Part shown: positions 2,419 through 57,888 of the stretch, one piece after another
How positions within the stretch are numbered: the first letter of the stretch is position 1
Layout of the letters: the number at the start of each line of letters is the position of its first letter
Source: Octopus vulgaris
Taxonomy: Eukaryota
NCBI GenBank assembly: GCA_951406725.2
Contig: OX597821.1
Coordinates: forward strand, 61,504,001-61,568,000
DNA: 64,000 nt
Direction of reading: 5' to 3'
The notes under the pieces: model-generated
What the model was told of the DNA's origin: nothing
The model's input: only the letters and a program-made list of their open reading frames with translations
Database searches by the model: none
Made by a program: the position numbers and the translations under genes

Positions 2419-3800
2419 TCAGAAGAGAGATGTTCCCGGTAGACAGCCGTTGCTTTTCGTTCTCTGCATGAAACCCCTGACTTTGGTACTCAGGAAAATG
2501 AACCTGGGGTACCAACTAAATGAAAAATCCCAAAACAATAAACTACCCACTCTTCATGGATGATTTGAAACTGTATGACAAAGATGAGATACAAATGAGT
2601 TCCTTGGTGAACACGGTTCACTGTTTTAGTACTGGTGTTAGAATGGAATTTGGACTCAAGAAGTTCGGAATAATCTATCTAAAATGAGGCAAGGTACAGT
2701 CCCTAGCAGGGATAATAATTACCGAATAGAGACTTGATGAAACAAATTGGAACGGAAGGATACAAATAGCTTGGTGTACTTGAGTGCAACGAGATAATGG
2801 ACAAGGAAATGGAAGAGCAACTGAAGATGGAGTATTTCCGAAGACTGAGGTTGTTATTGCGCTCAAAATTGACTTGATGAAATAAATTTCAAGCCGTTAA
2901 TACGTAGGCGATAGCATCACTTTGGTATGGGGCAAGAATTATAAATGGCAAAAGAGATAAATGAAGAAAATAGATTCCAAGACCAGAAAAATGTTGACAG
3001 TACGCGGGATCTTCCACCCGAAGAGAGACAATGATAGACTGTACTTGTCCTGAAGAAAAGGTGGGAGTGGTTCGATCAGTCCCTAGGACTATATCGAAGC
3101 AGAAGAAAACAGCTTAGAGTGGTAGGTATATAAAAAATGCCGTGGAGCTACTGTTGAAAGATTCGAAGAAGCCCGGAGTCACCAAAACTGAAAATTGTGT
3201 AACTAAAGAAAAATTTTAACAAGATGTGAACAAAAAAGAAAATAAAAAAGCATGGAAAGAAAAGAAAATGTACGGTCAGTTTGCAATAGATGTGAACACC
3301 AAGACAAATACAGAGGATCGGTGACTATGGATGAGGAGTGTCATGAAGATAAATAGTGAAGCACTCTTATGCGCAGCTGTGGAAGAATCGTTAAGGATAA
3401 ATTATATGAAGTGTAAAATTGACAACATAACCGATAGGAACAAATGCAGAATGTGTGGTGAGAGGCGTGAAACGGTATGGTACATCGTTAGCGAATGCCT
3501 GAAATTGGCACAACGCAAATGCAAACGACGCCATGACAATGTGGCAGGACTGATTCATTGGGAGCTGTGTGGAAATCCCGTCCTATATAGAGCAATGTGA
3601 AAGAAGAAGGAAAAATAAATAACTATAACGATTTGAAGTAGGAAATACGAGAAGAGAATAGACGTGATACGAATAGTGATTGGTGCACTTGGAAGTATCA
3701 GCACTCAATACCAACATGGCTGAAAAAGATTGGTGCAAGTGTGGAGGTAGAACACTTACAAATATCAGCTTTGTTTGGAACTGCAAGAATTCTCACTGAA
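2418..3800 (+). mobile_element. Degenerate 5'-truncated R4/Dong-like LINE
   Basis: LFMDDLKLYDKDE...RMEFGLKK (RT) near 2550-2670 and CRMCGERRETVWYIVSEC...RRHDNVA (zinc knuckle) in ORF 3331-3600. It is preceded by an (ATG/AAT)n array and ends CACTGAATAATAAT. Confidence 0.85.
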
Positions 3801-4457: not shown

Positions 4458-8590
<4,133 letters not shown>

Positions 8591-31720: not shown

Positions 31721-31832
31721 ATATATATATATATATATAAAATATTATTAGAGACAAAACCACTATTTTGCAAAACAAACAAGGGAAGACTTAATCAATA
31801 CATAAAATTTTAATAAATAGTAAAAAAAACCG

Positions 31833-31875
31833 CCACTACAATCGTTTCTTGTCTTGATCGACAATATTCAGGTGG
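31833..31875 (-). ncRNA. Minimal hammerhead-like motif (G8U variant)
   Basis: Mirror of 40038-40080. Confidence 0.6.
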
Positions 31876-32299
31876 ACTTCAATCTAAAATATCAATATTT
31901 TAAAATATACAAATAATAATTTTAAAATAATTAAAGTATGAATGAAAAAATATAAATATATAATCCATATATAACCTATATATAATCCATATATAATCAA
32001 TATATAAACAATATATAAACTAAAATAAACCTATCAACAATTAAATATAAAATATAAAATATAAAACAAAACAAAAAAATAATAATAATATAATAATAAA
32101 CTATATATACACCCATACACATATACCTAATTATATATAACCATATCTAACTACATACACTAAACCACACACCTATATATATATCCCTATACATATACAT
32201 AAAAACGTCTAGGCAACTATAAATAAATAAAATAGCTAAATACTTCAACACAATACTTATTCATACTCCCACACACACACACATACAACCCACATTCAC

Positions 32300-33940
32300 G
32301 CTCTAGAAAACGGACATCACTCAAAATTATGAACGGAGAAATGGAATAAATGGAATTAAAAATTATATTCACTTGGTAAAACGAACACTACTTAAAAATT
32401 ATGAATGAAACAATGCAATAAAACAACAGACATCGCAAATATACACAAATTACTACGAATTCCTTAACAAACCTACCATGATAAACCAAAACTCACAAAA
32501 ACATATAATGATAAAATCTCCCTTTACTAAACTCTATAACATACCTATATAGCAATCCCCCTAACCTAAACATTCACACACAAATACACACACGTAAACC
32601 ACACACCCACGACATATACAAATACCCACACCACTTACACATACCAATACATACATATAAACCTCAACATATACTCCAAAAACCCACTCAACCCCACACA
32701 GACAAATAAACACAAAAAAATATGAATGGATTCTTTTATAAAACTACCATGATAAGCTAAAACTCACAAAACAGAAATGATAAAACCTCCCTTTACTAAA
32801 CACTATAACATACTTATATAGCAATCCCTTTAACCTATACATTCACACACAAAAACACACACGTAAACCACACACCCATAACAAATACAAACACCCACCC
32901 CACTCACACACACCCACAAGTACATATAAGCCTCAACATATACACCAAACAAAATTACTTTACCAAGGAACTTAACATATGTATAAAAAGTATAACCGCT
33001 CCGGAAACGAACATCTCTAAATTAATGAATGGAGAAATGGAATAAATGGAATTAAAAATAATATTCACGTGGCAAAACGAACACCACTCAAAGATTATGA
33101 ATGAAACAATGCAATAAAACAACCAACATCGAAAATAAACAAATTACCACGAATTCCCTAAAAAAAACCATGATAAACCAAAACTCTTAAAAACATATAA
33201 CGATAAAATCTCCCTTTGCTAAACTCTATAACAAACCTATATAGCAATCCCCCTAACCTAAACATTCACACACAAATACACACACGTAAACCACAGACCC
33301 ACGACTTATACACATACCTATACTAACTTATAAACCTCAATATACACCAAAATCCACTCCCTCCACACACAGACAAATTAACACATACATCCCAAAACCT
33401 AAATAACAAACCCATATACACATTCACACACAAACACACACACAGGCAAAACACACACACACAACAGATACATATACTCCCTCACATATACGCATATACA
33501 TACTCACTAAACTCGATATATACAACAATATTTACACACCCACACTCATACAGATAAATAAATTATACAACTAAAAACTCACACACAATCTCATATACAT
33601 AAACACTCCTATGAAAACAACATTAAATACATCGTAATTAACCAGAATATCAAAAATAACAATATGACATAAGGATAAATAAAATACATACTTACAAGTC
33701 AGTTTCAAATTATAAAGTGAAATTAAATTCTTAGCCGTTAAAAAAATCAAACCAAAATTACGTTACCATAGAAATAACTTATGTAAAAAAAGAATACGCG
33801 TCATGGAAAGTAAACGTCATTTAAAATTATGAATGGAGAAAAAGAATAAATGGAACTAAAAACTATATCCACGTGGCAAACCAACACTACTTAAAAAAAT
33901 TTATTATGAATGGATTCTTTAAAAAACTACCATGAAAAAT
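32300..33940. repeat. Diverged tandem modules within the arm (C/A-rich strand)
   Basis: The module AAATTATGAA(C/T)GGAGAAA..GAATAAATGGAA occurs at ~32324, 33018 and 33824. The module ACCATGATAA...CTCCCTTT.CTAAAC.CTATAAC...ATAGCAATCCC occurs at ~32475, 32746 and 33167. Confidence 0.85.
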
Positions 33941-35363
33941 CATTATATACATTTATGAGCTTTAGCTCACCTTAGCAGCTCTAACAAACAACTTGCAGCA
34001 ACCCAAACCTATTCTCGATGCCTACCTCACTACTACACTATTCCACTCACAATTCCAAGCAACGCTAGTCCACCACCCGGTTACAATTCCCAACTCCACC
34101 CATTCATTCACAATTTCAACGACGTTCGCCTCCACAGCGCTACATATAAGCCTCAACATATACACCGGAGATTCACATCCGTGCGGATGGGTGAGAGTAT
34201 ACATTGAGTGTAGTGATGGGGCTCCCATTACTATACACATTTGTACCTGTGTGGTAGTCTCCATGTGTATATTCACGCACGGGTATAAATGCAGGGGGTA
34301 CACGCGCACGTCATTAGCGTGTACCCCCTCACATGTACATATGCATGCTATTTGGGCTCGATATATGCAACAATGTAATCGCGCCCGCATACATGCATAT
34401 GGGCGAGTTGCACAATCAAAAAACGCACACATGTGTGTGTGCGTTCCCTGGTTGTGCAATTCACCCATCTTGGTGTGAGTGGGTGTAAACGTATCGCTGT
34501 GGATGTCGAGCTTGATACGTATGTATATGAGTGTGTATTGGGGGGTTGTACGTATTTATTGTATGCATGTGCTTCACGCACGTGCGTCCATGTATGGATG
34601 AATATATTGGGATTGCTATGTGGGTGTAAATTGGGTATGGAGGGGGGAGTTTTGTCATTGTATGGGTGTGGGTTTCATATGTGATGGTGGTTAGTTGGTA
34701 ATTTTTGGTATGTTCTGTATATTTGGGTTAGTTATGTATTATTCTAGTGTGTATAATTGTATACACAATTTTTGGGGATGTATGTGTTTATTTATCCATA
34801 TGGGGCGGGAGTGGCCGTTAGGTGTATATGTTGAGGCTCACATGCAATTCCAGGTACAGCGAATGAAGTGGGCACTTACATTTGTTATGGGTGTGTGTAC
34901 TTTATTATAACAGACAATACCCAAATAAAATCTGTCAATTCAACATACCAAATAAAAAACAAAAAACAAAGGGATCATAAACATTCACACATACATACAA
35001 AACTCAATAAAAACACCACTAAATAACACCCATCAACATATAAATATATCCTCCAAAATACATATAGCAAATGCATTATAAAAATACATAATAAAATAAA
35101 ATAAAAATAAAAAAATAAAAAAATAAAAAAAATAAAAAATAAAAAAATATATAAATAAAGAAAATAAAAAAATCTAATCTAAATTATTAAAGTTTTAACA
35201 TACCATATACTGTTAAAATAATATACATTAAAAATGAACTAATTAAAACAAAGAAATATCAATAAAGACTAACTATAATTAAATCCTAGACAACATAACC
35301 AAAAATATATTATCTAAACTAATTTAAACTAAACTAAAGTAACCTAAAAGGGAACTATTATTG

Positions 35364-37233
35364 CTATTTATCATGAAACTTATTATATAGGTAAAGTAAC
35401 TTATGTCTGCATTTTATTTTGCGCTCTTCACCAGTATTAAGTAAATTATCATACTTATAAAATAAAATTTCTTTAAACTCATTAGAGCATAAATAACAAC
35501 AATTAGCTCCTATAGTATATGATTTAGTTTTACAAATTATTTCCCAAATTAAACTATAATTAATATTTAGTGATTTAAGACTCCAAATGTACTTACTAAG
35601 TCCGGTTGAGTTGATTAAGTTTTTATTTTTAAAAGAATTCATATGTTGTGCGATTCTTAGTTTTATTTTTGAGGAAGTAGAACCTATATAAACCGCTTTT
35701 GTGTAATTATTATTCTTAAAGTTATTATCATGTAATGTAACTATACATTTATACACTACATCGTTAATATCACAATTATTGTTTAATATACAATTAGATT
35801 TATCTCTACATGTACAATTAATATAAGTCTTATCATTATTAATATTATTATCAAATAATTTCTTTTTATAAAAATTATTCAGTTTATATTTATTAAATAA
35901 AGAAATAATGTTACCAACATTATTAGTGGTAGAGTAACCAACTCCAAAATTATTAAAAGAGAAAATGTTTCTATATTTACGATTATCTCTAATAAATAGT
36001 TCTATAACATCTAAAATCTCTTTAATAATATTCGTTTTTACTTGATCTCCATAAGGAACTATTAACCAAATTTTATTCTTATTAACCTTATTATTATTAT
36101 CATTATTATAAATATTTTTATTTTATTAAAATTATTATCAGAATTATATCTATGTACAGCATTTAAGGAATTATTAATATTATTAAATTTATCAATATAA
36201 TTATAATAATTATTAAATTTATTTTTATTTTTATTATTCTTATTTATATTATTATTATTATATTTATTATTATTATTATTATTCTTATTTATATTTTTAT
36301 CATTTTTTATAATTATTATTAGAAGTATCTCGAAAATTAACAATTAAATCTTTATCACTAATATTATAAAATTTAATATTCCTATTATAACCTGCCCCTC
36401 TAAGGGCCTCATTATAATATTTAGCATGTTTATTAAAAATCTCTATATCATAAGAGAGTAATGAAATACGTTTACTTATATTATTAATCAACGATTTTTT
36501 AATAGAAAATGGGTGATTACTATTAACATTTATATATCTAAGGTTCTCATTAAGTTTATGATATGGTTGTGTTTTACCTGTAATAAGATTAAAATTAACA
36601 TCTAAATAATTAACATTATAATTCTCCTTATATATAGTAATACTTAAACCATATCTTTTAAAGAAACTATATAGTTTTTTCTTATATACTTCTAGATTCC
36701 TATTAGTACAATTCTTTGTAACTAGTAGAAGATCGTATCTATATAAACCACCCTCTATCTTAAGATTTTCTAATTGGAGTTCAGATAAAAGAAAAATACC
36801 TACTAAATCAGTAGCCTGTGCAGAATCTGGTGCTCCCATAGGTATATCAAAAAAATCTCTAGTATCATTCCTAGCCCATAATTTATTTTTATATTTAATT
36901 AGCGATTTCCTAGCCATTTTAATTACATTAACTTCTTCCCGTGACATACCCACTTTATTCATTGCGAAAATAAGCGCTTTATTAAACACAATTTCATTAA
37001 TAGAAGAATAATAATTATCTATATCTATTTGAATAAATTTATAACGATTTTTATCTTTAATATTATTAAACCATTTCAATGTATTATTATTACTAAACCA
37101 TAATTTAAAATAATTAAGTTTATTTAACTTATCAATATATTTATCTAAAATAAATTTACTTAATTTACCTAGGTCCGATTAACATGGGCAAATTAATCTA
37201 ACTTTAGGGTCTGAATAAAAATTATCTTTATGG
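35364..37233 (-). pseudogene. Naiad-type PLE reverse transcriptase-GIY-YIG ORF, disrupted and 5'-truncated
   Basis: RT: HKDNFYSDPKVRLICPC*SDLGKLSK, FIQIDIDNYYSSI, IPMGAPDSAQATDLVG, LYRYD (for YRDD), NYLDV, YINVNSNHP. Linker: IWLIVPYGDQVKTNI...VGYSTTNN. Endonuclease: NCTCRDKSNCILNNNC..DVVYKC...VYIGST...R..QH...STGLSKYIW...CYLCSNE...LLN...KCRH. It has one stop (~37180) and two compensating frameshifts in an Asn-rich tract. Confidence 0.9.
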
Positions 37234-40177
37234 TATGAAACCCACACCCATACAATGACAAAACTCCCCCCTCCATACCCAATTTACACCCACATAGCAA
37301 TCCCAATATATTCATCCATACATGGACGCACGTGCGTGAAGCACATGCATACAATAAATACGTACAACCCCCCAATACACACTCATATACATACGTATCA
37401 AGCTCGACATCCACAGCGATACGTTTACACCCACTCACACCAAGATGGGTGAATTGCACAACCAGGGAACGCACACACACATGTGTGCGTTTTTTGATTG
37501 TGCAACTCGCCCATATGCATGTATGCGGGCGCGATTACATTGTTGCATATATCGAGCCCAAATAGCATGCATATGTACATGTGAGGGGGTACACGCTAAT
37601 GACGTGCGCGTGTACCCCCTGCATTTATACCCGTGCGTGAATATACACATGGAGACTACCACACAGGTACAAATGTGTATAGTAATGGGAGCCCCATCAC
37701 TACACTCAATGTATACTCTCACCCATCCGCACGGATGTGAATCTCCGGTGTATATGTTGAGGCTTATATGTAGCGCTGTGGAGGCGAACGTCGTTGAAAT
37801 TGTGAATGAATGGGTGGAGTTGGGAATTGTAACCGGGTGGTGGACTAGCGTTGCTTGGAATTGTGAGTGGAATAGTGTAGTAGTGAGGTAGGCATCGAGA
37901 ATAGGTTTGGGTTGCTGCAAGTTGTTTGTTAGAGCTGCTAAGGTGAGCTAAAGCTCATAAATGTATATAATGATTTTTCATGGTAGTTTTTTAAAGAATC
38001 CATTCATAATAAATTTTTTTAAGTAGTGTTGGTTTGCCACGTGGATATAGTTTTTAGTTCCATTTATTCTTTTTCTCCATTCATAATTTTAAATGACGTT
38101 TACTTTCCATGACGCGTATTCTTTTTTTACATAAGTTATTTCTATGGTAACGTAATTTTGGTTTGATTTTTTTAACGGCTAAGAATTTAATTTCACTTTA
38201 TAATTTGAAACTGACTTGTAAGTATGTATTTTATTTATCCTTATGTCATATTGTTATTTTTGATATTCTGGTTAATTACGATGTATTTAATGTTGTTTTC
38301 ATAGGAGTGTTTATGTATATGAGATTGTGTGTGAGTTTTTAGTTGTATAATTTATTTATCTGTATGAGTGTGGGTGTGTAAATATTGTTGTATATATCGA
38401 GTTTAGTGAGTATGTATATGCGTATATGTGAGGGAGTATATGTATCTGTTGTGTGTGTGTGTTTTGCCTGTGTGTGTGTTTGTGTGTGAATGTGTATATG
38501 GGTTTGTTATTTAGGTTTTGGGATGTATGTGTTAATTTGTCTGTGTGTGGAGGGAGTGGATTTTGGTGTATATTGAGGTTTATAAGTTAGTATAGGTATG
38601 TGTATAAGTCGTGGGTCTGTGGTTTACGTGTGTGTATTTGTGTGTGAATGTTTAGGTTAGGGGGATTGCTATATAGGTTTGTTATAGAGTTTAGCAAAGG
38701 GAGATTTTATCGTTATATGTTTTTAAGAGTTTTGGTTTATCATGGTTTTTTTTAGGGAATTCGTGGTAATTTGTCTATTTTCGATGTTGGTTGTTTTATT
38801 GCATTGTTTCATTCATAATTTTTGAGTGGTGTTCGTTTTGCCACGTGAATATTATTTTTAATTCCATTTATTCCATTTCTCCATTCATTAATTTAGAGAT
38901 GTTCGTTTCCGGAGCGGTTATACTTTTTATACATATGTTAAGTTCCTTGGTAAAGTAATTTTGTTTGGTGTATATGTTGAGGCTTATATGTACTTGTGGG
39001 TGTGTGTGAGTGGGGTGGGTGTTTGTATTTGTTATGGGTGTGTGGTTTACGTGTGTGTTTTTGTGTGTGAATGTATAGGTTAAAGGGATTGCTATATAAG
39101 TATGTTATAGTGTTTAGTAAAGGGAGGTTTTATCATTTCTGTTTTGTGAGTTTTAGCTTATCATGGTAGTTTTATAAAAGAATCCATTCATATTTTTTTG
39201 TGTTTATTTGTCTGTGTGGGGTTGAGTGGGTTTTTGGAGTATATGTTGAGGTTTATATGTATGTATTGGTATGTGTAAGTGGTGTGGGTATTTGTATATG
39301 TCGTGGGTGTGTGGTTTACGTGTGTGTATTTGTGTGTGAATGTTTAGGTTAGGGGGATTGCTATATAGGTATGTTATAGAGTTTAGTAAAGGGAGATTTT
39401 ATCATTATATGTTTTTGTGAGTTTTGGTTTATCATGGTAGGTTTGTTAAGGAATTCGTAGTAATTTGTGTATATTTGCGATGTCTGTTGTTTTATTGCAT
39501 TGTTTCATTCATAATTTTTAAGTAGTGTTCGTTTTACCAAGTGAATATAATTTTTAATTCCATTTATTCCATTTCTCCGTTCATAATTTTGAGTGATGTC
39601 CGTTTTCTAGAGCGTGAATGTGGGTTGTATGTGTGTGTGTGTGGGAGTATGAATAAGTATTGTGTTGAAGTATTTAGCTATTTTATTTATTTATAGTTGC
39701 CTAGACGTTTTTATGTGTATGTATAGGGATATATATATAGGTGTGTGGTTTAGTGTATGTAGTTAGATATGGTTATATATAATTAGGTATATGTGTATGG
39801 GTGTATATATAGTTTATTATTATATTATTATTATTTTTTTGTTTTGTTTTATATTTTATATTTTATATTTAATTGTTGATAGGTTTATTTTAGTTTATAT
39901 ATTGTTTATATATTGATTATATATGGATTATATATAGGTTATATATGGATTATATATTTATATTTTTTCATTCATACTTTAATTATTTTAAAATTATTAT
40001 TTGTATATTTTAAAATATTGATATTTTAGATTGAAGTCCACCTGAATATTGTCGATCAAGACAAGAAACGATTGTAGTGGCGGTTTTTTTGACTATTTAT
40101 TAAAATTTTATGTATTGATTAAGTCTTTCCTTGTTTGTTTTGCAAAATAGTGGTTTTGTCTCTAATAATATTTTATA
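37234..40177. repeat. Right arm of the 2944-bp inverted repeat
   Basis: Reverse complement of 31736-34679, followed by ~80 bp of unpaired tail before (TTA)n(TA)n. Confidence 0.97.
40038..40080 (+). ncRNA. Minimal hammerhead-like motif (G8U variant)
   Basis: CCAC CTGAATA TTGTCgatcaaGACAA GAAA C gatt GTA GTGG. Stems I and II pair perfectly and stem III is minimal. The core is CUGAAUA instead of CUGANGA. Confidence 0.65.
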
Positions 40178-40252
40178 ATATTTTACTATAAAATTGGATT
40201 TAATCCTAAATCTGATTTTTTTCCCTGTAAATTTGGATTTATTCCCTAATAT

Positions 40253-40311
<59 letters not shown>

Positions 40312-57039: not shown

Positions 57040-57070
<31 letters not shown>

Positions 57071-57203
57071 GCGTTAGACAATATACCAGAAATCCCTAGT
57101 TTTGTCGGGACGTTCTGAGTCTGCGCAGTGATCTGATTAGTTAGAGAGAGCAAATCATTAGAAGCACATGCTTCTAGTGAGTTAGGATCTCAGAACAACA
57201 GGG

Positions 57204-57277
57204 CTCTTACCGATGAATTCTCCCTGAGCAAATAAATTATCTTTATTGCTGAAAAGAACGAAACTGCAGTCTAAGAG
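57204..57277 (+). ncRNA. Type I hammerhead with extended stem II (copy 1)
   Basis: CTCTTA CCGATGA aTTCT..AGCAAATAAA ttatc TTTATTGCT..AGAAc GAAA C tgca GTC TAAGAG. U4C core variant, palindromic ACTGCAGT stem III, GUC triplet. Confidence 0.8.
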
Positions 57278-57600
57278 GAACCGAGTTAGTAAATGTTTTT
57301 ATTTTCATTTCACTAAATTTATCTAGCTTCTGTGTTTCTATCACATATTTCGCCTTAATGTACTGATATATGAATAATATATGGCTTGTGCTAGAAATAC
57401 CAGCGATAATAATTAATTTTATTTTATCACAATTTGAATTGTTTACATATTTCTCGATAAATTTTGAGCGTTAGACAATATACCAGAAATCCCTAGTTTT
57501 GTCGGGACGTTCTGAGTCTGCGCAGTGATCTGATTAGTTAGAGAGAGCAAATCATTAGAAGCACATGCTTCTAGTGAGTTAGGATCCCAGAACAACAGGG

Positions 57601-57674
57601 CTCTTACCGATGAATTCTCCCTGAGCAAATAAATTATCTTTATTGCTGAAAAGAACGAAACTGCAGTCTAAGAG
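57601..57674 (+). ncRNA. Type I hammerhead with extended stem II (copy 2)
   Basis: Identical to 57204-57277. Confidence 0.8.
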
Positions 57675-57837
57675 GAACCGAGTTAGTAAATGTTTTTATT
57701 TTCATTTCACTAAATTTATCTAGCTTCTGTGTTTCTAGCACATATTTCGCCTTAATGTACTGATATATGAATAATATATGGCTTGTGCTAGAAATACCAG
57801 CGATAATAATTAATTTTATTTTATCGCAATTTGACTT

Positions 57838-57888
<51 letters not shown>

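Follow-up and report, generated by a model that had tools for sequence, protein, structure and literature searches.

The window analysed here, a stretch of 64,000 nucleotides of Octopus vulgaris DNA (contig OX597821.1, positions 61,504,001 to 61,568,000 of the forward strand), contains on its minus strand a 5′-truncated Penelope-like retrotransposon with a C-terminal endonuclease (31736–37233), the 3′ end of which adjoins (TA)n/(TATC)n repeats. The part of the open reading frame (ORF) that covers the reverse transcriptase (RT) domain (36300–37178, minus strand; 292 amino acids) has lost its N-terminus to the truncation. The linker and GIY-YIG endonuclease (EN) part (35364–36122, minus strand) contains CxCx5C, CxxC and CxH motifs and no CCHH motif, as read by eye. 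The RT and EN parts of the window copy lie in different frames, with the break in an Asn-rich linker; a relative, L031, has one continuous frame of 862 amino acids, whose C-terminus carries a GIY-YIG-type motif, recognised by motif. A Pfam search with the RT and EN parts returned no family at the cut-off. The 3′ untranslated region (UTR), or pseudo-LTR, occupies 3.6 kb (31736–35363, minus strand) and consists of repeated modules of about 250–450 nt; its ORF-sense strand is rich in U/G and poor in A/C. Within it lie direct modules that are largely without edits (32436–33600, minus strand), which an earlier note on this DNA had used as reference copies, and a segment of about 950 nt (33946–34899, junctions approximate) that is inverted relative to an older subfamily (L091, L093 and L104).

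Next to the element is an inverted copy of 31736–34679 (37234–40177, plus strand; 2944 nt, 5 mismatches), followed by a tail of about 80 nt and (TA)n. This is the typical 5′ inverted structure of Penelope, and the 2944-nt duplication includes a mirror of the edited hairpin at 37234–37967. In a full-length copy, L032, the start ATG (L032:3481 onward) is located about 140 nt past an upstream tandem pseudo-LTR, and the tail beyond the window's inverted arm (40178–40260) matches the L032 stretch between pseudo-LTR and ATG. The family is large and young: a first look yielded 17240 candidates for the EN protein, of which 150 were scored, many with 97–100% identity, and 423 candidates for the hairpin DNA, of which 40 were scored. 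Elsewhere in the window we observed a second, unrelated non-LTR retrotransposon (4826–8491, plus strand), with RVT_1 in 6067–7113 (E 5e-31) and a C-terminal part that lies in a different frame and matches zf-RVT weakly (7100–8491), and a 397-nt unit repeated twice in tandem with 97% matches (57060–57847), with (TA)n runs on both sides.

The host element of the fold-back is a young Penelope-like element (PLE), likely of the Hydra clade as judged from motifs and architecture. Like the Hydra-clade, C-terminal EN+ PLEs described in PMC8557442 (this and the other papers are cited from excerpts), it combines an RT with a C-terminal GIY-YIG domain and has DKT, the CxCx5C linker and CxxC plus CxH around E and N, with CCHH absent (translation read by eye). 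The (TA)n targets and the tandem and inverted pseudo-LTRs are likewise alike, and a hammerhead-like core may be a further parallel; (TA)n insertion, 5′ truncation and tandem or inverted pseudo-LTRs were seen at the ends of the window element and in several relatives. The family unit differs in its length of about 6.3 kb, including the 3.6-kb modular UTR, as compared with the generally <3 kb of Hydra-clade units, and in having KWK in place of the clade's RWK near the N-terminus, with R-I before it (PMC8557442). The excerpt of that paper does not mention A>G clusters for these elements. A hammerhead-like motif lies near the 3′ end (31830–31876, minus strand). Its core is degenerate in both arms of the window (the second at 40037–40083, plus strand), whereas the 48 matches to the core CUGANGA...GAAA in the fetched loci keep CUGANGA and vary at N only. 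Rfam gave no hammerhead match, and only sub-threshold miRNA-like matches at the apex of the fold-back; the hammerhead region by itself, folded as a single sequence, scored no better than shuffles.

The earlier note had described an imperfect fold-back assembled from the modules of 32.5–33.6 kb, with runs of A replaced by G. The four pairs of sequences that it quoted all lie where it placed them. The fold-back is genuine: its apex lies at about 34431, and its z values against 20 shuffles are −8.1 (plus strand) and −10.8 (minus strand). When the left arm was compared with the window module at 33326–33585, 46 of 121 A residues had changed to G, as against 0/6 for G>A and 5/48 for T>C; against L092, the closest hairpin-less genomic sister, the arm had A>G at 51/111 and T>C at 2/59. 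The opposite half of the hairpin, for which the same bias had been reported, has it as well (right arm, plus strand, versus L092: A>G 35/82, T>C 20/148), and the transition mismatches between the two arms on the plus strand comprise 75 G.U versus 18 A.C (binomial p 2e-9). The changed zone had been delimited to 34165–34860, which is real but too small, since 33946–34141 is a further inverted module; on the minus strand this module has A>G at 50/101 and T>C at 1/55. The G state is not specific to this copy but common to the family (40 scored of the 423 candidates; 55 near-complete copies compared).

We constructed a maximum-likelihood tree from the EN gene and adjacent sequence, leaving out the hairpin, for 52 of 59 labelled loci (the other 7 are without the region), which had been selected by similarity and not at random. 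The tree is a ladder that leads from outgroups through hairpin-less copies, stage-1 copies (L091, L093 and L104), early flipped copies and mid copies to young copies including that of the window, with several short internal branches unresolved. Relatives at 90–93% EN identity lack the hairpin and carry A in the corresponding modules. Because the hairpin-less outgroups carry A, and because of the ladder form of the tree, A is ancestral and G is derived; the G-rich hairpin is the common state of the young copies. Ancestral G followed by G>A decay was first hinted at by the 30 closest copies, in which no change on the plus strand of the window is as frequent as G>A (81/334 G versus 35/558 C for C>T), and was ruled out by the outgroups and the tree. 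Nor is the substitution spectrum symmetric or unrestricted, the other finding that would have spoken against editing: the changes are skewed to one side, and they lie in inverted or paired parts only.

The stage-1 copies carry the hairpin in the orientation opposite to that of the window. In this lineage an inverted copy of a module block of about 480 nt arose, and both arms have 47–58% A>G on the ORF-sense strand (hereafter round 1). For the round-1 insert of L104 compared with L092, the ORF-sense counts were 112/194 for A>G, 8/115 for T>C and 9/99 for C>T, whereas 1655 nt of non-inverted UTR in the same pair had A>G at only 2/405 (versus the insert, p 7e-65). The round-1 partner arm, in L093 versus L042, had A>G at 45/95 and T>C at 7/164. 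The branch on which these changes fall amounts to about 0.001–0.007 changes per site in the marker. Among 198 gap-free sites with A in both L042 and L051, five stage-1 copies have G in all at 100, in none at 80 and in some at 18, a sharing pattern that fits one founder burst or a few closely spaced ones. A pattern search found no unedited round-1 apex or hairpin, although this does not prove absence; single and several close bursts are therefore inseparable. A round-1 origin on an antisense transcript was considered and dropped, as the hairpin of the older copies points the other way.

The neighbour preference of ADAR, depletion of 5′ G, was evident in the round-1 insert, where A had changed at 49/65 sites after U, 31/54 after A, 29/57 after C and 3/11 after G (p 0.004), or at rates of 0.75, 0.57, 0.51 and 0.27. 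It was evident also in segment I1 of the later rounds, in which A after 5′ G was changed in any copy at 0/9 sites versus 69/87 for the others (p 4e-6), with flat rates for U, A and C (0.42, 0.41 and 0.40) and depletion at G only. It failed to appear in the round-1 partner arm, where 5′ G was undepleted (6/14), and the pooled pairwise test for 5′ G was weak (12/46, p 0.03). As to the 3′ side, A was changed at 13/25 sites before G versus 220/537 before other nucleotides, a difference that is not significant (p 0.30), there being few 3′ G sites.

In the window family, about 950 nt of the stage-1 UTR are inverted (33946–34899), and because of this flip the round-1 changes now stand on the other strand. 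Segment D1, the left arm (34142–34431, plus strand), is the remnant of the first hyper-edited inverted insert, whose A>G changes lie on the plus strand on account of the flip. Segment I2, the right arm (34432–34899, plus strand), is the round-1 partner arm, with A>G on the plus strand, to which later sense-strand A>G has been added (34/208 versus L093, in three patches). Segment I1 (33946–34141, minus strand) is direct and unchanged in the older subfamily; here it is inverted and has 50/101 A>G on the ORF-sense strand. The flip makes the formerly direct I1 and I2 complementary to the downstream direct modules.

We scored 55 near-complete copies against the three stage-1 copies after dropping two duplicate loci. 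L137 had 0 A>G in both I1 and I2 and reads as a putative unflipped precursor. Eight early copies had A>G at 29–45 of 98 sites in I1 and at 4–24 of 218 in I2, and the remaining 46 copies at 43–50/98 and 28–32/218, respectively. For ten early copies, which include L100 and two partial copies but not the near-twin L096, and which are not fully independent (L119/L133 and L095/L100 are related), the I1 totals were A>G at 359 of 980 A-calls, T>C at 10/560, G>A at 9/209 and C>T at 4/220, and the EN gene, in seven of the ten, had A>G at 4/1911. Each early copy has a largely private A>G pattern in the newly inverted parts: in the 55 pairs among 11 early copies, I1 differed by 3–33 A/G differences (mostly 13–30) and by 1–6 at other sites, and in the four-gamete test 439 of 861 informative column pairs were incompatible with a single tree. 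Thirteen I1 sites have G in all ten early copies, which suggests an earlier shared round. One early pattern, with few additions, was inherited by the young copies including that of the window. The earlier note had proposed editing 'in more than one round or orientation'. The rounds stand; as to orientation, the ORF-sense RNA is the strand that shows A>G in each round, and changes appear on both strands because the hairpin was inverted as DNA between rounds.

In a minimum-energy fold of 2400 nt of the sense RNA of L035, the changed I2 patches and most of I1 are predicted to lie in long helices with direct modules, and the middle of I2, which is without A>G, is unpaired. Over 383 A sites, change correlated with predicted helix length (rho 0.29, p 6e-9). 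For one heavily changed part of I1 the fold predicts short helices only, and the partner direct modules have a smaller sense A>G excess. An A opposite C was not favoured in I2 (19/62 versus 17/45); in D1, in the later rounds, the counts were 4/32 versus 0/26.

Several other observations were made in the UTRs. Besides A>G, the window UTR (31736–35363) and the family UTRs show a sense C>T drift, with G>T also raised, that is not CpG-specific and that ADAR does not explain. Along the ladder, C>T in I2 rises from 4–9 to about 20–30. The drift was absent from ORF singletons (C>T 10/63 versus G>A 14/85) and was no higher at edit-derived C (20/42) than at old C (32/75). When 60 loci were scanned for further hairpins rich in G.U, the scan brought up L058, L059, L046, L038, L070, L080 and L087 as G.U- or A.C-skewed; most of these were set aside as low-complexity or microsatellite self-matches. 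The 3′ UTRs of L058 and L046 (EN 87% and 84% identical) had A>G at 44/137 versus G>A at 11/82, and at 24/207 versus 2/45, respectively, which is suggestive of older, independent sense A>G patches in a TA-rich UTR, the sequence being of low complexity; RNA rich in UA may pair with itself and undergo editing towards UG. The hairpin-less L044 has a mildly G-rich, partly self-complementary UTR block (oriented 3380–3560), perhaps left over from an older inversion that had been edited. L042 carries a GC-richer insertion of about 310 nt, SINE-like by eye, in a (TA)n run of its UTR (oriented ~2980–3290), and L092 has a near-perfect fold-back of about 100 bp (oriented ~700–900) in the flank outside the element.

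The reading given by the earlier note, hyper-editing of the element RNA followed by retrotransposition, is supported by these sequence comparisons. We consider it very probable, as judged from the genomic copies, that ADAR repeatedly hyper-edited the element RNA in the germ line and that the element's own RT fixed the edits. The inverted UTR modules would form long duplexes in the Penelope-like RNA, in which ADAR would deaminate A in germ-line or early-embryo cells. Reverse transcription reads inosine as G, and the element's RT would in this way write the edits into heritable DNA. A DNA inversion then flipped the hairpin, so that previously direct, unchanged modules became antisense to their neighbours; the newly inverted parts would be edited afresh, at a differing set of sites in each early daughter, and edited copies would serve as source elements for later bursts. 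Penelope elements form inverted junctions routinely (PMC8557442), which would supply new duplexes. PLEs also retain introns (PMC8557442); we would expect an RNA template located in the nucleus to be particularly open to ADAR. An ADAR2-type deaminase is encoded in the genome (E 2e-102 to human ADAR2), at least four loci of which match the A_deamin family. The signature matches that of ADAR: the A>G changes all lie on the ORF-sense strand of the subfamily of origin, at 47–58% in round 1 and with an I1 plateau of 43–50/98 A in mid and young copies.

The rival explanations account poorly for the confinement of the changes, the switch after the inversion and the avoidance of 5′ G. Polymerase error, in which the RT or second-strand synthesis puts G opposite T owing to a skewed dNTP pool or to stalling at structure, would likewise be strand-specific and private to each insertion, and the sense C>T drift, another strand-biased change of the UTR, may be polymerase-related. 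It is nevertheless improbable in our judgement: the ORF (4/1911) and the unpaired UTR (2/405) are nearly clean, and the changes shift to segments just as these become inverted, reach ~55% and avoid 5′ G. We know of no polymerase with clustered sense A>G behaviour of such a kind. We would give slightly less credence to a different deaminase or substrate, either an ADAD/ADAT-type enzyme on RNA or a deaminase on the DNA of the RNA:cDNA hybrid or of the second strand. The multiple A_deamin loci would provide candidates, and ADARs can accept dA of DNA:RNA hybrids as an in-vitro substrate (review PMC12925331); editing of first-strand cDNA, however, would leave sense T>C, which is near absent (10/560), and the pattern tracks intramolecular RNA-type pairing and the neighbour rules of ADAR.

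Point mutation with selection on the hairpin, where G.U is tolerated or a weaker duplex favoured, would have to act on siblings that are ~0.1–1% apart elsewhere and yet have 13–30 A/G differences per 200 nt, which is too fast and too pure, and transversions and C>T, which could change the pairing just as well, are not raised in I1. Its counterpart, ancestral G with decay, could draw on the predominance of G>A among young copies, but the outgroups and the tree fix A as ancestral, and we regard this pair of explanations as very improbable. Least credible of all is an artefact of sequencing or assembly, or gene conversion between the paralogous modules. The region is indeed repetitive and of low complexity; the same G pattern nevertheless recurs on many chromosomes with tree structure, the two arms of the window's 2944-nt duplication agree, and the direct modules used in the comparison have A where the G's stand and so could not donate them.

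Repeated ADAR hyper-editing agrees with what is described for the enzymes. Human ADAR1/2 have the neighbour order U>A>C>G and a ceiling of 50–60% in long dsRNA (PMC3113232), and the 5′ order and A>G level of the round-1 insert match these rules. Animals in general show hyper-editing in which upstream G is depleted, and its level in Octopus is very high (PMC5625713); a downstream preference is weak or variable in invertebrates (PMC5625713, PMC3113232). The hyper-edited inverted repeats of metazoans are alike in their long duplex, 50–60% ceiling and upstream-G depletion (PMC5625713, PMC3113232); such editing is normally an RNA–DNA difference only (PMC5625713), whereas here the pattern is in the DNA. 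The excerpts of PMC8586724 and PMC5974252 give the neighbour rule and no transposon case.

The closest precedent comes from avian retroviruses, which have ~50% A>G in an inverted repeat (avian leukosis virus) and in the U3 of Rous-associated virus (Felder 1994; Hajjar & Linial 1995; as summarised in PMC12925331), likewise fixed by reverse transcription. The present case differs in that the element is endogenous and Penelope-like and the changes are inherited through the germ line. A single lineage went through several rounds, its sibling copies record many private patterns, and the dominant young family was founded by edited copies. APOBEC3 editing of genomic retroelements (mouse IAP, human HERV; PMC2873906) similarly leaves clustered, strand-specific deaminase marks in genomic copies, but acts as C-to-U on cDNA, giving G>A, in contrast to the sense A>G found here in paired RNA only and avoiding 5′ G. 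ADAR also engages the RNP of a non-LTR retrotransposon in human LINE-1, the restriction of which by ADAR1 appears editing-independent (PMC12925331, PMC5224506); here, the template for transposition appears to be heavily edited, and amplification appears to continue nevertheless. A literature search of incomplete coverage brought up no description of ADAR hyper-editing that is inherited within a lineage of endogenous transposons.

RNA editing is normally not inherited, and here a retrotransposon family appears to pass ADAR edits into germ-line DNA repeatedly, as an A-to-I counterpart to the APOBEC DNA editing of retroelements. Each early insertion would preserve one edited molecule, and the genome sequence alone would reveal the specificity of ADAR in the germ line and how the Penelope RNA folds in vivo. 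It is also a sign that hyper-edited RNA can still be used as a transposition template, against the editing-independent picture for LINE-1. A practical caution is that editing bursts can inflate the divergence and dating of repeat libraries. Whether duplex-weakening edits aid escape from dsRNA-triggered silencing is now testable. On balance, we lean slightly towards the broader view that germ-line ADAR editing has been a recurrent heritable mutagen of this lineage, in which duplexes made by inversion are edited and the less double-stranded copies become the successful sources. If this is true, the A-poor, G/U-rich UTR would be the product of recurrent editing over time, germ-line ADAR activity would be recorded in the genome with dates and at the level of single molecules, and other retroelements may follow the same route.
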